Virus record (IMG/VR): IMGVR_UViG_3300046171_000271
Reading direction: 5' to 3' (one strand)
Length of the DNA: 64,000 nt
Origin: a virus
Taxonomy: Duplodnaviria; Caudoviricetes
Shown: in pieces, positions 28,855-62,340 of the stretch
Position numbering within the stretch: the stretch's first letter is position 1
How the letters are laid out: each line of letters begins with the position of its first letter
Notes under the pieces: model-generated
What the model was told of the DNA's origin: nothing
The model's database searches: none
The model's input: only the letters and a program-made list of their open reading frames with translations
Program-made: the position numbers and the translations under genes

Positions 28855-28872
28855 AACGTTAAGTTCTGTAAA
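28855..28872 (-). promoter_or_regulatory. HLR1-like repeat in the psbA leader
   Basis: minus strand TTTACAGA-AC-TTAACGTT, 13/16 to HLR1 consensus. Confidence 0.4.
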
Positions 28873-28880
28873 GTTGTATT

Positions 28881-28977
28881 ACTCTCTGCAAACCGAGGCC
28901 TCTAGGGAGTATAAAAACGCCTCTAATACCTATCTCTGAGGGTGAGATAGGAATATTTACTTCAGTGTCCCTGCACT
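28881..28977 (+). ncRNA. structured psbA 5' leader, PhotoRC-II-like
   Basis: ACTCTCTG/TAGGGAGT stem with GAGGC/GCCTC crossing it (H-type pseudoknot), then hairpin CCTATCTC/GAGATAGG; a cyanophage psbA leader motif is known, identity not verified. Confidence 0.6.
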
Positions 28978-34716: not shown

Positions 34717-35044
34717 ATGGGTAAGCATTACCTTCTTAATCTTTATGGATGTGACTTTTATGTTCTCAATAATGAAATATATTTGAGAAACCTTATCAAA
34801 CTTGCTGCAGAAACATCTGGAGCAACAGTGCTTGAAACGATTTCAAATAATTTTGCTCCTCATGGGAGTGACTGCAATCTGTCTTCTTGCTGAAAGTCAT
34901 ATTAGTATTCATACTTGGCCTGAAAAGGGCGAAGCAGCTGTGGATATTTTTACTTGTGGTGATGCAGAACCTAAGATTGGTTGTGATATAATTACTTTAC
35001 AAATCAAACCAAAAAATCACACTCTTAGTTTCATCGAGCGATAA
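34717..35044 (+). CDS. speD: S-adenosylmethionine decarboxylase-family proenzyme, apparent frameshift near 34865
   Basis: MGKHYLLNLYGC N-terminus joins GVTAICLLAESHISIHTWPE...DIFTCG. Confidence 0.85.
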
Positions 35045-35057
35045 TAAATATCCGTAT

Positions 35058-35264
35058 ATGATCTTTATTATGAATTACAAACCTTACAGTCCTGAGTGGC
35101 ATAGATATCGCTACCTCAAGGAAGCAGTCTATCAGTATCTTGATGATTACGTGGAAAATGAAGTAATCGTGAAAGATATTTTAAGCATTGTGTGTGAGCG
35201 TCAAGAACGAGCACATGCAGAATATCACAAATTAGAAGACTTAGAACTAAAACTCAGAGACTAA
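35058..35264 (+). CDS. hypothetical protein
   Basis: YKPYSPEWHRYRYLKE; follows ATAAATA. Confidence 0.55.
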   Translation: MIFIMNYKPYSPEWHRYRYLKEAVYQYLDDYVENEVIVKDILSIVCERQERAHAEYHKLEDLELKLRD

Positions 35265-35265
35265 T

Positions 35266-35585
35266 ATGTTATCTACCGCATACCGTCTTCGTCTGGAGTC
35301 TATCTGTCGTTGCATTGCCAACAAAGAAGACGTTCCACTAGGAGGATATGATTTGGGCAGAAAAACTTGCCAAGGCACATACCCTTGCTAGGGATTGGTT
35401 GAATAAAAGCACGTCGTCAAGCTGCTCATGATATAGAGGAGGGAAGTGTTGATGATTTTATGAATAGGATGGGGTTAGGTGATCCCGATCCCATCCAATT
35501 ATAAAACGGGATTCGATGGTGCAGATGAAATTGTAGACTGGTTTAAAACAAGGACAAACCTGATGATTGGAGGCAACGTGACTAA
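35266..35585 (+). CDS. hypothetical protein broken by several indels
   Basis: frame pieces MLSTAYRLRLESICRCI / DMIWAEKLAKAH / DDFMNRMGLGDPD / KPDDWRQRD join into one ORF. Confidence 0.55.
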
Positions 35586-35599
35586 CATTATTACTAAAA

Positions 35600-35767
35600 A
35601 TGGACATTACACTTTCTAGTGAAGAAGCAGAACTTCTATTAAACTTGATGATCAATTCGCATATGGATGATAAAGATGATACTTTCCTTGAATATGATTG
35701 TTTTGGAGAGTTAATGAATAAACTTCTGAAGACATGTAGAAAATTTGATGAGGAGAAAGGTGACTGA
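35600..35767 (+). CDS. 55-aa hypothetical protein
   Basis: intact short ORF MDITLSSEEAELLL... Confidence 0.4.
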   Translation: MDITLSSEEAELLLNLMINSHMDDKDDTFLEYDCFGELMNKLLKTCRKFDEEKGD

Positions 35768-35908
35768 AGAAGAAAGAAAATTTATCATAAATCTACAACT
35801 AAATAATATTTGTGAAATATTAGATGGGAAACTTAACCATCAACAGGTTATAGACTCTAAAGGTAAATGCTTCAAGAAGAATTATAATCGAATATCAGGA
35901 GAAAAGTA

Positions 35909-36135
35909 ATGCAGGCCTGGATCTACAGTAACGGAAACCAAGAATGTGAAAGAGCTGCTATGCTTTTAAAAAGTATCCATAATTGATTTTCATGAATATC
36001 TTTTAGATAAAGATTTTACAGAGTCTCAGTTCAAAGCAGAATTTGGTGAAAGTGCAGAATATCCACAAATTGCTATTGGTGTAAAGCATCGCGGTAGTCT
36101 CAAAGAACTTTGAATTATCTAAACAAAATAAATTA
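35909..36135 (+). CDS. glutaredoxin-like protein broken by indels
   Basis: YSNGNQECERA...EYLLDKDFTESQFKAEFG..AEYPQIAIG. Confidence 0.55.
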
Positions 36136-36162
36136 CAAATGTTCATGTTGATACCAACACAT

Positions 36163-36191
36163 TTGACTAAATAGAATTGAAAGTGTATCCT
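36163..36191 (+). promoter_or_regulatory. sigma70-type promoter with overlapping CTAAATA, directly upstream of the tandem RNA elements
   Basis: TTGACT 36163-68, 17 nt, TATCCT 36186-91; CTAAATA 36167-73. Confidence 0.6.
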
Positions 36192-36199
36192 ACACTTGT

Positions 36200-36448
36200 C
36201 GTTCATCTCATGCTCAGTATCCTTACTGGCATTGACCCTTGCCTCATCATAATGACGCGTCACTCCTTACGGGTGGCACATGTCTTGTGAAAGGTTCTCT
36301 ACAGACGATCGAGTTGAAATTCCAATGCAGATCCCAATCTCGAGCGCTTCGGTCTAAGTATGAATCTGATAGGTTACCTTAGAGTCGAAAGTTGACGGGC
36401 GAATGTGAAGGGAGCATTCACATGAGACGCAAGTAAGTCGCGGAACGG
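36200..36448 (+). ncRNA. glutamine-II (Downstream-peptide)-like riboswitch fold A with an approximately 208-nt P2 loop
   Basis: P1 CGTTC 36200-04/GAACG 36443-47; P2 TCTCATG 36206-12/CATGAGA 36421-27; junction CGCAAGTAAGTCGCG. Confidence 0.65.
36210..36425 (+). CDS. small protein inside the P2 loop of fold A, broken by indels as sequenced
   Basis: ATG and TGA are both in the P2 strands and in the same frame; frame 0 stops at 36288-90, but shifted pieces read MLSIL.., PYGWHMSCERF, MNLIGYL, ..GAFT. Confidence 0.5.
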
Positions 36449-36450
36449 AG

Positions 36451-36630
36451 CGTTCATCCCGTGTTTGAATTTTTACTTTACTCTGGTATTCATTGCACCG
36501 ATGCTAAGGATATGATCCGACGTATCGAAGCAAGTAACAGTGTAAGTAAAATTACTAAGGCTGAGGTTGTTGAGACCGTAAAGGAAGCAACACCTGAGTG
36601 CAAATGGGACGCAAACGACTGAAGGAACGG
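36451..36630 (+). ncRNA. glutamine-II-like riboswitch fold B with an approximately 141-nt P2 loop
   Basis: P1 CGTTC 36451-55/GAACG 36625-29; P2 TCCCGT 36457-62/ATGGGA 36604-09; junction CGCAAACGACTGAAG. Confidence 0.7.
36461..36622 (+). CDS. 53-aa protein inside fold B
   Basis: intact GTG..TGA ORF MFEFLLYSGIHCTDAKDMIRRIEASNSVSKITKAEVVETVKEATPECKWDAND; GGAG at 36447-50 upstream. Confidence 0.7.
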   Translation: MFEFLLYSGIHCTDAKDMIRRIEASNSVSKITKAEVVETVKEATPECKWDAND

Positions 36631-36663
36631 ACCTAAAAATCCAACTACTTCAGGAGAAAACCA

Positions 36664-36828
36664 ATGAACACACTTACTATCATCAAAAAGCAAATCAACA
36701 AGGCAGCAGCTCTGCATGACGCACAGATTACTCACACCGCATATCGTGGTGTAAAGTCTGAAGTTCGTAAGGTAGGACAGGAGTCTCACGGCACCTTCTG
36801 CTACCGTGGTCGTATCTATACCAAGTAA
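36664..36828 (+). CDS. DUF4278-like YRG peptide (54 aa)
   Basis: MNTLTIIKKQINKAAALHDAQITHTAYRGV...FCYRGRIYTK; SD AGGAG 36652-56. Confidence 0.75.
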   Translation: MNTLTIIKKQINKAAALHDAQITHTAYRGVKSEVRKVGQESHGTFCYRGRIYTK

Positions 36829-36834
36829 GGAACT

Positions 36835-36930
36835 ATGGAAGCACTACAGTTAACTGGGCTCTTATCCTTAGGTTGTTTTGTTGCTATATCGGTATTTTAC
36901 GGTGAACTCGTCCTTCTTTACAAACACTGA
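36835..36930 (+). CDS. 31-aa membrane peptide
   Basis: MEALQLTGLLSLGCFVAISVFYGELVLLYKH; AAGGA upstream. Confidence 0.55.
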   Translation: MEALQLTGLLSLGCFVAISVFYGELVLLYKH

Positions 36931-36941
36931 GGGAAAAACAA

Positions 36942-37100
36942 ATGCTGAAGATCAAACTTTATTATGATCTTCCAGAATATAATCCAGAAGTTCACGATCC
37001 TGATAGGGTTTTCAGACTTCTAACATATCGTGGAGTAACTTATGCTAAGTGGATTAATTTAAAATCTCTAGGCATATCAAACTGGAAAGTATTTAAATGA
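36942..37100 (+). CDS. second YRG (DUF4278-like) peptide (52 aa)
   Basis: MLKIKLYYDLPEYNPEVHDPDRVFRLLTYRGVTYAKW... Confidence 0.6.
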   Translation: MLKIKLYYDLPEYNPEVHDPDRVFRLLTYRGVTYAKWINLKSLGISNWKVFK

Positions 37101-37134
37101 GGACCTTGACGGGTCCTCTTTTTTTGTCTATAAT
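37099..37134 (+). terminator. terminator hairpin overlapping a sigma70 promoter
   Basis: GAGGACCT-TGAC-GGGTCCTC+T7; TTGACG 37106-11, 17 nt, TATAAT 37129-34. Confidence 0.85.
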
Positions 37135-37155
37135 TAGTTGAAACTATACTATCTT

Positions 37156-37341
37156 ATGGAAAGAGACAAACTTAAATTGATAGTACGGAATCTAAAACTT
37201 CTTGTTGAAGCATTGGAGTCTGAAGTTTATTCGGATATTGATGCTTATACAACACGGCAAGAGAATTATGATGATCCTGCTGCAAATTACATAACTGATT
37301 ACGACGAAGTATTTAATGACGATGATGGATACCCAGACTGA
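37156..37341 (+). CDS. hypothetical protein
   Basis: KLKLIVRNLKLLVEALESEVYSD; acidic tail. Confidence 0.6.
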   Translation: MERDKLKLIVRNLKLLVEALESEVYSDIDAYTTRQENYDDPAANYITDYDEVFNDDDGYPD

Positions 37342-37383
37342 TTAGTAAAACTTATCTCTGTTACTCCTGATGCAGAGAAGCAC

Positions 37384-37976
37384 ATGGCCTATTGTGCTCG
37401 CGTAAGTAATCCAAACAATCAGGAGAATGAAAAGTTTGCAGGTCTCCTCAGATATTGTATCAAGCATCAACATTGGAGCATCTTTGAGCAGGCAACAATG
37501 ACTCTAGAGTTGAATACTACAAGGGGAATTGCGGCCCAAGTGCTTCGGCATAGGTCTTTCACATATCAAGAATTTTCACAACGTTATGCTGATTCCTCCT
37601 TATTGGGTGAGACGATCCCGCTCCCCGAACTCCGCCGCCAAGACACCAAGAATCGTCAGAATTCTATTGATGATGTTGACCCGTTTGTTCGTCAAGAGTT
37701 CCAGATTAAAATTACGAAGCACTTTGAAGAAGGTATGAAACTTTATCAGCAGATGCTTGATGCTAACATCGCAAAGGAATGTGCCCGCTTTGTTCTCCCC
37801 CTTGCCGTCCCACCAGACTTTACATGACGGGTTCTAGTCGTCATGGATCCATTATATCGATTTGCGCTCTGCAAACGGCACACAGAAGGAGCACATGGAC
37901 ATTGCTAAGGATGCTAAGACAGTATCTTCTGTGAACAGTTCCCTGCTGTTGCAGAAGCCATTGAGTGGGTTAATAA
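37384..37976 (+). CDS. thyX: flavin-dependent thymidylate synthase, with indels; true start probably about 40-60 nt upstream
   Basis: HWSIFEQ, QVLRHRSFTYQEFSQRY ThyX motif, KECARFVLP; C-terminal pieces continue in shifted frames. Confidence 0.9.
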
Positions 37977-61680: not shown

Positions 61681-61754
61681 GCGCGAGTAGTCCAATGGCA
61701 GGAGACACCAAACTTAAAATTTGTACAGTGCGGGTTCGAGTCCCGCCTCGCGTA
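61681..61754 (+). tRNA. trnL: tRNA-Leu(UAA) with a short variable loop, no encoded CCA
   Basis: acceptor GCGCGAG/CTCGCGT, anticodon TAA 61715-17, T-arm GCGGG-TTCGAGT-CCCGC, discriminator A. Confidence 0.85.
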
Positions 61755-62268: not shown

Positions 62269-62340
62269 GCCCCTGTAGCTCAATGGCAGAGCAACGCTTT
62301 TGTAAAGCGTAGGTTGTCCGTTCAAATCGGATCGGGGGCT
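62269..62340 (+). tRNA. trnT: tRNA-Thr(UGU), no encoded CCA
   Basis: acceptor GCCCCTG/CGGGGGC, anticodon stem ACGCT/AGCGT with TGT 62301-03, GTTCAAAT T-loop. Confidence 0.92.

Follow-up and report, generated by a model that had tools for sequence, protein, structure and literature searches.

A probable nested double glutamine aptamer with small genes in its hairpin loops at the head of an early cyanophage operon

The locus and its operon

The window analyzed here is a 64,000-nucleotide (nt) stretch of DNA from the IMG/VR virus record IMGVR_UViG_3300046171_000271 (Duplodnaviria; Caudoviricetes), whose source is a T4-like cyanomyovirus. Between positions 36163 and 37134, it holds a short operon that opens with two motif units (A and B) of the glutamine-aptamer type, each enclosing a small open reading frame (ORF) within a hairpin, followed by genes for small peptides with a YRG motif. 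These sequence features had been described in an earlier note on this DNA as lying directly 3' of a promoter, and all of them were confirmed on reading positions 35900–37400. The best explanation, and probably the right one, is that the early operon transcript opens with a nested double glutamine aptamer in which genes occupy both P2 loops and the YRG peptides are the output.

The 5' half of unit A consists of CGTTC (36200–36204), an A (36205), and TCTCATG (36206–36212), with an ATG at 36210, and its 3' half (36421–36448) reads CATGAGA-CGC-AAGTAAGTCGCG-GAACG-G, in which GAACG-G occupies 36443–36448. A GAG linker (36448–36450), sharing its first G with this GAACG-G, leads to the 5' half of unit B, composed of CGTTC (36451–36455), A, and TCCCGT (36457–36462), with a GTG at 36461. 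The 3' half of unit B (36604–36630) reads ATGGGA-CGC-AAACGACTGAAG-GAACG-G, with GAACG-G at 36625–36630. Both start codons lie in the stems, as had been claimed, the ATG within TCTCATG and the GTG overlapping TCCCGT. The parts of the element and of the operon are collected in Table 1.

Table 1. Features of the operon and of its leader in the window (bases of the leader elements written as RNA).
Feature	Position	Strand	Basis
Sigma-70-type early promoter, TTGACT-17-TATCCT	36163..36191	+	directly 5' of the aptamer motifs
Outer P1 5' strand CGUUC and conserved A	36200..36205	+	RF01739 alignment; partner by exclusion from inner covariation
Outer P2 5' strand UCUCAUG, holding the ORF A AUG (36210)	36206..36212	+	sequence and stem covariation
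ORF A, phrog_6471 family, filling the outer P2 loop	36210..36425	+	PHROG match, codon-position signal
Outer P2 3' strand CAUGAGA, holding the ORF A stop UGA (36423)	36421..36427	+	stem pairing
CGC (outer-core third-strand and linchpin nucleotides) and AAGUA (E-loop 5' half)	36428..36435	+	covariance-model alignments
P3 5' strand AGUCG	36436..36440	+	P3 covariation
Inner P1: CG, GAACG (36443–36447), loop GAG (36448–36450), CGUUC (36451–36455)	36441..36455	+	CAACG/CGUUG double change
Conserved A and inner P2' 5' strand UCCCGU, overlapping the ORF B GUG (36461)	36456..36462	+	sequence, stem pairing
ORF B, 53 amino acids (aa), phrog_504, filling the inner P2' loop	36461..36622	+	ORF list, PHROG match
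Inner P2' 3' strand AUGGGA, then inner-core CGC and AAA (codons W-D-A-N)	36604..36615	+	stem pairing, frozen codons
P3 3' strand CGACU	36616..36620	+	P3 covariation
CUGAAG, 5' strand of the alternative blocking helix	36619..36624	+	covariation with CUUCAG
GAAG (E-loop 3' half), outer P1 3' strand GAACG (36625–36629), linchpin G (36630)	36621..36630	+	covariance-model alignments
CUUCAG (36648–36653), 3' blocking strand, overlapping/abutting AGGAG of the first YRG gene	36648..36656	+	covariation, minimum free energy (MFE)
First YRG peptide gene, 54 aa, phrog_545, putative regulated output	36664..36828	+	ORF list and PHROG match
31-aa hydrophobic peptide gene	36835..36930	+	ORF list
Second YRG peptide gene, phrog_6192	36942..37100	+	ORF list and PHROG match
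Intrinsic terminator, end of the operon	37099..37125	+	window sequence

YRG peptides represent the IF17-like class that usually stands behind glutamine riboswitches of marine picocyanobacteria (PMC2864571; PMC6212724). The motif occurs in both downstream peptides of the window, as the earlier note had stated, whereas the DUF4278 that it also named was undetected, since Pfam returned no family at E ≤ 1. The PHROG families of the two peptides (545 and 6192) are of unknown function.

The locus is widespread in phages of marine picocyanobacteria. An exact search of viral contigs with the 18-nt junction of the element returned 120 loci (individual relative loci are labelled L and a number below), and further pattern scans extended the collection to 194 distinct complete architectures, in all of which the entire frame is kept. 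A homologous locus is present in 434 records of Synechococcus and Prochlorococcus phages, and a 41-nt junction, carried without annotation, occurs in 412 isolate cyanophage records, which places the junction-bearing aptamer core in at least 412 isolate cyanomyovirus genomes. This conservation of the motifs is far above chance. A 15-mer of the junction gave 120 chance matches in bacterial genome contigs, all in unrelated bacteria and none with an aptamer context, a search by which cyanobacteria were not assessed.

A promoter of the form TTGnnn-N16-18-TAnnnT ends 7–9 nt 5' of the first CGUUC in 165 of 191 distinct relatives. Because of this short distance, the RNA is expected to begin at the aptamer, and the transcript start should lie at, or just 5' of, its first base. 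Metatranscriptome contigs (RNA runs X5 and X16) that reach 36200 run on into the reverse complement of the junction. The loose contig ends at 36200 were considered as transcript ends and rejected, as the assembly switches strand there, at the inverted repeats formed by CGUUC and GAACG. The Rfam scan of the window gave no match in the region of the operon, neither at the gathering threshold nor at E ≤ 10; it detected a PhotoRC-II RNA at 28869–28964 (67.1 bits). Two tRNA genes are located at 61681–61754 and 62269–62340.

Aptamer class and the genes in the loops

Hairpin loops of 10–47 nt are here called short, the alternative state being a loop filled by an ORF. Among the 194 architectures, a short hairpin A is combined with an ORF in hairpin B in 117, both hairpins hold ORFs in 52, both are short in 13, and hairpin A holds an ORF beside a short hairpin B in 12; the majority (181) carry at least one ORF. 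In four close relatives of the window (L130–L133), ORF A is intact and hairpin B is short. The ORF B-less joint, from 36459/60 to 36605/7, is also found in contigs of other marine samples, both DNA and RNA, with three distinct short fillers.

Such natural short-loop relatives, and not edited sequence, served as the loop-deleted versions in a check with Infernal that the earlier note had proposed. The models were RF01739 (Glutamine, glnA RNA; gathering score 35 bits) and RF01704 (Downstream-peptide; 33 bits). Six relatives reached the RF01739 gathering score, including two single short-loop aptamers before a YRG gene (L255, 45.1 bits; L254, 42.7 bits) and four nested short-loop forms (L112, 46.4 bits; L257 and L259, 40.2 bits each; L288, 37.0 bits). 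The short-loop forms align to RF01739 over its full length with all pairs canonical, and L112, being identical to the window at all bases outside the two hairpins, is a natural loop-deleted version of the window element. The window misses the cut-off because of its 215- and 147-nt loop insertions together with the nesting, in agreement with the expectation that long loops would hide the element from covariance models. Both units are, by homology, glutamine-aptamer sequences, as had been supposed, and the element is a member of the glutamine-aptamer lineage.

As to its class, the outer fold, judged from its sequence, is type I (glnA RNA, RF01739), with P3 and an E-loop of AAGUA and GAAG, both halves of which are conserved in the relatives. 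The proposal of class II did not hold. RF01704 scored at or above its cut-off on only two of the 16 short-loop loci (35.7–35.9 bits on 'unit A' of L257 and L259), and its best alignments leave four of the eight P2 pairs non-canonical, so that this model appears to score the shared core and not the class-II pseudoknot. When four isolate phage genomes were scanned with RF01704, only chance-level matches were obtained.

A small gene, encoding a protein that contains two cysteines, takes up the full length of each P2 loop. ORF A, of 65–68 aa in the relatives, starts in the 5' strand of P2 and stops in the 3' strand. ORF B starts in the 5' strand of P2', and its frame crosses the 3' strand of P2', CGC, AAA, and the 3' strand of P3, ending 11 nt past the P2' 3' strand at a stop codon (UGA) that lies in P3 and overlaps the E-loop. 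For the main family of ORF B (n = 80), entropies at codon positions 1/2/3 are 0.96/0.53/1.28, and ORF A (n = 34) gives 0.75/0.56/1.21; by this measure, both ORFs are evolving as coding sequence and are real genes. This signal, the four loop states, and the paired stems uphold the claim that each hairpin encloses a real gene instead of a short loop.

The genes are positioned precisely within the RNA. Among 108 B forms, 104 have their start codon 10 nt after the start of CGUUC, at stem positions 5–7, and so do 27 of the 39 A forms. The ORF A stop mostly falls inside the 3' strand of its own stem, as UGA-GA, UAA-GA, or UAG-GA opposite UC-UCA, UC-UUA, or UC-CUA, respectively, and the ORF B stop is placed 8 nt upstream of the aptamer end in 103 of 108 forms. 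The C-terminus of ORF B, W-D-A-N-D-stop, is encoded within the 3' aptamer motif. At the third positions of its last five codons, entropy is 0, 0, 0, 0.27, and 0.17, while the codons of earlier residues range from 0.43 to 1.99 (mean 1.28); these positions are frozen because they are also aptamer sequence, which substantiates the statement that the last codons and stop of ORF B form the 3' half of the aptamer. The rare synonymous changes in this tail are P3 variants, each matched in the partner strand. Divergent and poorly alignable loop-B proteins all end in DAND for the same reason, namely that the RNA fixes their last codons.

The stems that close the loops are maintained across the genes. 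Across ORF A, stem positions 1–3 are paired in 64 of 64 sequences, and position 3 is C-G in 40, U-A in 20, and U.G in 4 (Fisher 5e-13, in a test that ignores shared ancestry). Across ORF B, positions 1–4 are paired in at least 99% of 169 sequences, with position 4 being C-G in 121, U-A in 40, and U.G in 7 (Fisher 8e-32, with the same disregard of ancestry). In the short-loop forms, the P2 that directly follows the conserved A covaries strongly.

In the proteins of both loops, the N-terminus is hydrophobic and two cysteines stand about 36–38 residues apart (Cys-X36-38-Cys); distant paralogy between the A and B families is possible (hhalign P = 3.7e-4, probability 36%). No significant Pfam family was found for them, the one weak match, obtained for gp196 of Syn9, a phage with ORFs in both loops (gp196–gp198), remaining below the cut-off (E = 0.058), and PHROGs gave only families of unknown function (504 for ORF B and 6471 for ORF A). 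Their homologues are all 'hypothetical' and located on phage-sized contigs, and an Atlas search with the loop proteins returned nothing.

The damage to ORF A by indels, on which the earlier note had remarked, is real in the letters of the window and is probably not biological. Compared with L130, unit A of the window shows 13 insertion runs (15 nt), no deletions, and 14 substitutions, while its 7-bp P2 stem is intact. Single-base insertions relative to L130, with almost no deletions, also affect the upstream genes (35000–36100), of which only short ORF fragments are left, and the extra bases of ORF A occur in none of the contigs from four other samples. A true pseudogene was rejected as the default on these two grounds, and the damage probably reflects insertion errors left uncorrected in the assembly, that is, a fault of sequence quality.

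Several further RNA elements were observed near the nested aptamer in relatives. A manA RNA (RF01745, 169–176 bits) lies 3' of the nested operon in L259 (1299–1496), L286 (2312–2505), and L308 (712–914), and L259 has an additional single RF01739 aptamer (1194–1242, 37.7 bits) downstream of the nested one. In L002 (syn9; approximately 1255–1300), L046, L112, and others, an extra element, AAACGGAUC-hairpin-AGAAGGUUAA, stands between the aptamer end and the ribosome site of the YRG gene. This element is similar to the CGG...P3...GAAGG portion of a type-I aptamer, yet no CGUUC partner accompanies it.

Nested pairing and a permuted inner core

The two units had been taken for independent folds standing back to back, and the covariation contradicts this arrangement. 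In six distinct sequences, which span at least three different contexts of promoter and hairpin A, the first GAACG is changed to CAACG and the second CGUUC to CGUUG, while the outer strands are still CGUUC and GAACG. Since this double change is compensatory only if GAACG(1) pairs with CGUUC(2), these two strands form the inner P1, leaving CGUUC(1) to pair with GAACG(2). The RF01739 alignment of the double forms likewise starts at the first CGUUC, ends at the last GAACG, and treats the interior of AAGUA-AGU...ACU-GAAG as a P3 loop. As AAGUA belongs to unit A and GAAG to unit B, the E-loop is possible only when the folds are nested. Taken from these alignments and covariations, CGUUC 36200 would be paired with GAACG 36625 in the outer fold, and GAACG 36443 is paired with CGUUC 36451 in the inner one.

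The helix P3 (AGUCG/CGACU in the window) joins the linkers of both units, and all five of its pairs are present in 200 of 201 distinct sequences. The strand combinations comprise AGUCG/CGACU (103), AGUCA/UGACU (46), AGUCG/CGAUU (14), GGUCA/UGACU (11), AAUCG/CGAUU (9), GAUCG/CGAUU (7), GGUCG/CGAUU (5), AUUCG/CGAAU (3), AGACU/AGUCU (1), and AGUCU/GGACU (1), among which there are at least four compensatory types (AGUCA/UGACU, AAUCG/CGAUU, AUUCG/CGAAU, and AGACU/AGUCU). When the nested structure was applied to 17 forms with two compact loops, 99% of the cells were paired and the covariation score was 0.186, compared with 0.062 for shuffles and at most 0.053 for slid partners. The pairing evidence indicates that one fold is inside the other, a second, circularly permuted core sitting in the P3 loop of the outer fold.

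This inner core begins with a GAACG-loop-CGUUC hairpin (P1) and continues with the conserved A, hairpin B, CGC, AAA, and the 3' strand of P3, which it shares with the outer fold; on its other side, the 5' strand of P3 is followed by CG and GAACG. Of 219 sequences, 218 have the A after CGUUC(2) and 211 have the CG that precedes GAACG(1). The inner loop opens with G in 218 of them, its remaining two or three bases being variable. The invariant G fits the pattern expected of a linchpin partner for the inner CGC, by analogy with the C19:G41 linchpin of the solved glutamine-II structure (PMC6698751). All nucleotides that contact glutamine in that structure are present in both cores, and in both the linchpin is C:G (CGC...GAACG-G), which is the polarity of type II and not the G:C of the RF01739 consensus. 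The inner element looks, from its sequence, like a second core, which may bind glutamine.

The inner loop appears to have a second role. Together with G36447, the loop GAG forms GGAG, 10 nt upstream of the ORF B start, so that the aptamer loop would double as the ribosome site of ORF B. At loci in which the search pattern left this loop unfixed, GAG is found in 52 of 63 ORF-bearing forms and in 1 of 20 short-loop forms (p = 4e-10); with a short hairpin B, the loop is variable (GAU, GUA, GUU, GGG, and others).

Compared with the type-1 glutamine riboswitch (RF01739; gifB leader, PMC6212724), the element shares the P1 strand sequences CGUUC and GAACG, P2 after a conserved A, the AAGUA/GAAG E-loop, and P3. 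It differs in the orientation of its linchpin, in the second, permuted core carried by its P3 loop, and in P2 loops that hold genes of 53–68 aa, which leaves 420 nt between the P1 strands; unlike the members of RF01739, the window itself goes undetected by the model. With glutamine-II aptamers (RF01704, PMC6698751) it has in common the pocket nucleotides CGUUC-A, CGC, and G-GAACG-G, the C:G linchpin, and a location upstream of YRG peptide genes, which is where glutamine-II aptamers lie in marine picocyanobacteria. Unlike them, it has an E-loop and P3 in place of the H-type pseudoknot whose P2 helix flanks GAACG, and the conserved A33:G42 pair (PMC6698751) is absent, the corresponding window bases being G..A in unit A and A..A in unit B; its covariance-model scores are marginal, with P2 mispaired. 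A two-piece glutamine-II aptamer still binds its ligand (PMC6698751), which makes long-range assembly plausible here. Like side-by-side tandem aptamers, the leader has two cores that would sense one ligand, but these are nested, share a helix, and include an inner one that is circularly permuted, with P1 capped and P3 open.

Output switch, alternative readings, and implications

The segment CUGAAG near the 3' end of the aptamer can form an alternative helix with CUUCAG, which is incompatible with P3, the E-loop, and P1, and which is present in the MFE structure of the window RNA. All 31 CUAAAG variants have a CUUUAG partner, and the CUGAAG forms have C or U at the partner position. In the type-1 glutamine riboswitch of Synechocystis gifB, glutamine frees the ribosome site and IF17 synthesis rises (PMC6212724); as in that leader, the ribosome site of the IF17-like (YRG) gene here has its pairing partner in a 3' segment. 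The alternative helix is predicted to block the YRG ribosome site, and the arrangement matches that of gifB, from which ON control may be supposed.

On this model, CUGAAG without ligand would pair with CUUCAG beside the ribosome site of the YRG gene, and a fold stabilized by glutamine, bound at one or both cores, would draw CUGAAG into P3, the E-loop, and P1 and free the site. The folded, glutamine-bound state would also bury the short leader with the 5'-proximal AUG of ORF A as well as the GGAG and start codon of ORF B. Conversely, ribosomes on either ORF would open P2 and P2', and those on ORF B also P3 and the E-loop. It is a reasonable inference that the folded state of the aptamer and ribosomes on the enclosed genes are mutually exclusive and that glutamine shuts off the loop genes, shifting translation to the YRG peptides. 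That the two-site glutamine sensor acts as a fully reciprocal translational switch on one mRNA is a more tentative proposal, possible though doubtful. At low glutamine, ribosomes would then load at the ORF A AUG and at the GGAG and start of ORF B while the YRG site is blocked; at high glutamine, both cores would fold, possibly cooperatively through the shared P3, so that the starts of the loop genes are buried and the YRG site is freed.

In a nearest-neighbour model, the nested fold lies above the MFE by a median of 3.9 kcal/mol for forms with two compact loops, 5.2 kcal/mol with ORF A only, 6.4 kcal/mol with ORF B only, and 8.4 kcal/mol with both ORFs. Each ORF is thus predicted to cost about 1–2.5 kcal/mol extra, so that the genes would add little.

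Other explanations of the locus have to be weighed against the nested, gene-bearing aptamer. The loops may simply be tolerated or recombination-swapped sites for passenger genes, the nested riboswitch controlling the YRG gene only and translation of the loop genes being constitutive or loosely affected by glutamine. All four combinations of gene-filled and short loops do exist, also when only close relatives or single metagenomes are compared; the aptamer halves on either side hardly vary and would offer anchors for recombination; and glutamine aptamers need no ligand to form their P1 and P2 stems (PMC6698751). What passengers would leave unexplained is that the start codon sits at its fixed 10-nt offset in the stem, that the ORFs occupy the loops end to end, that GAG/GGAG appears in the inner loop specifically when an ORF follows, and that ORF B extends 11 nt beyond its own stem across CGC and P3; these features suggest that RNA and genes are mutually adapted. 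Group I introns carry ORFs in their loops as tolerated insertions and provide a precedent for passengers. This explanation is unlikely, if far from negligible. Alternatively, the aptamers of ORF-bearing phages may be dead relics whose halves persist as translation signals or coding sequence, only the short-loop forms being functional. The predicted folding cost rises with each ORF and is high in the window, and the distal stem pairs are weak, as such decay would have it; yet stem positions 1–4, P3, and the blocking helix covary within the ORF-bearing forms, the synonymous sites of the ORF B tail are frozen, and ORF-bearing forms make up the majority, all of which makes a relic improbable.

Two independent class-II aptamers side by side, pairing CGUUC(1) with GAACG(1) and CGUUC(2) with GAACG(2) as the earlier note had modelled them, would agree with the order and spacing of the motifs and with the two RF01704 scores above the cut-off; moreover, GAACG(1) is transcribed before CGUUC(2) and might pair briefly with CGUUC(1). 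In this arrangement, however, the CAACG(1)/CGUUG(2) change would yield C.C and G.G mismatches, the covariation of P3 between the two linkers and the single E-loop made from both units would have no place, the RF01704 alignments are mispaired in half of P2, and the tandem fold, when enforced, comes out 2.5 kcal/mol less stable than the nested fold, so that the side-by-side model is very improbable. Least credible of all is a conserved element that marks a boundary for the recombination of cassettes or the processing of RNA, comparable to the promoter/stem-loop cassettes of T4-type phages. Although the block is intergenic, very conserved, beside an early promoter, and flanked by variable small genes, its short-loop forms match RF01739 over the whole length with canonical pairs, the ligand-contacting nucleotides are all kept, and a YRG gene context is usual for glutamine riboswitches.

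Several observations weigh against the nested aptamer with genes in its loops and YRG output. The outer P1 strands are invariant (205+ sequences), and their pairing follows from exclusion and the Rfam alignment, without covariation of its own; moreover, the covariation counts are uncorrected for shared ancestry. The inner core has a loop of 3–4 nt where normal aptamers have free ends, and it is without an E-loop. Stem pairs past position 4–5 hold in only 38–82% of the ORF-bearing forms. For the full-length RNA of the window, the nested fold is predicted at 14.3 kcal/mol above the MFE, compared with the both-ORF median of 8.4, and this gap counts against easy folding of the window sequence in particular. 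The blocking helix, too, would be melted by a ribosome that terminates at the ORF B stop, and the two outputs may accordingly be non-reciprocal.

Genes in RNA loops have a counterpart in group I and II introns, whose peripheral loops can hold ORFs; there, the closing stem is likewise kept and ORF-less forms coexist (PMC3984707). Unlike in these introns, the host RNA here is a 5'-leader metabolite sensor instead of a ribozyme, none of the ORFs encodes a homing endonuclease, and their start and stop codons lie within stems. Glutamine riboswitches are known from some T4-like cyanophages (PMC9964418; PMC9602691), and a survey in 2017 listed just two glutamine aptamers in cyanophage genomes and described riboswitches as rarely used by phages (PMC5473149). 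In the Weinberg alignment, at least two marine scaffolds with a short hairpin A and an ORF in hairpin B are aligned over 'unit A' only, ORF B and the 3' half being left as flank. A full-text literature search, whose reach did not include the original 2011 binding paper (Ames and Breaker), turned up no account of nesting, of a permuted inner core, or of genes in aptamer loops. The architecture is beyond any current model, though the element belongs to the glutamine-aptamer lineage.

The core was missed in earlier surveys because the folds are nested and the loops hold genes. Covariance-model scans are blind to aptamers with long loop insertions, and phage riboswitches may have been undercounted, given two in the survey and at least 412 isolate genomes here. 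If the locus is indeed a reciprocal two-site glutamine sensor, it would be without precedent among natural riboswitches in two respects, the coding genes inside its aptamer loops and the nesting of a circularly permuted aptamer within another. A permuted nested aptamer whose enclosed genes have start and stop codons in its stems would offer a natural system for studying the competition between translation and ligand-dependent folding. For the phages themselves, a glutamine-sensing viral control point would precede peptides related to the inactivators of host glutamine synthetase, with relevance for nitrogen flow in infected marine Synechococcus and Prochlorococcus, and if the reciprocal switch is true, the virus would re-programme the nitrogen handling of its host according to the glutamine level of the cell.

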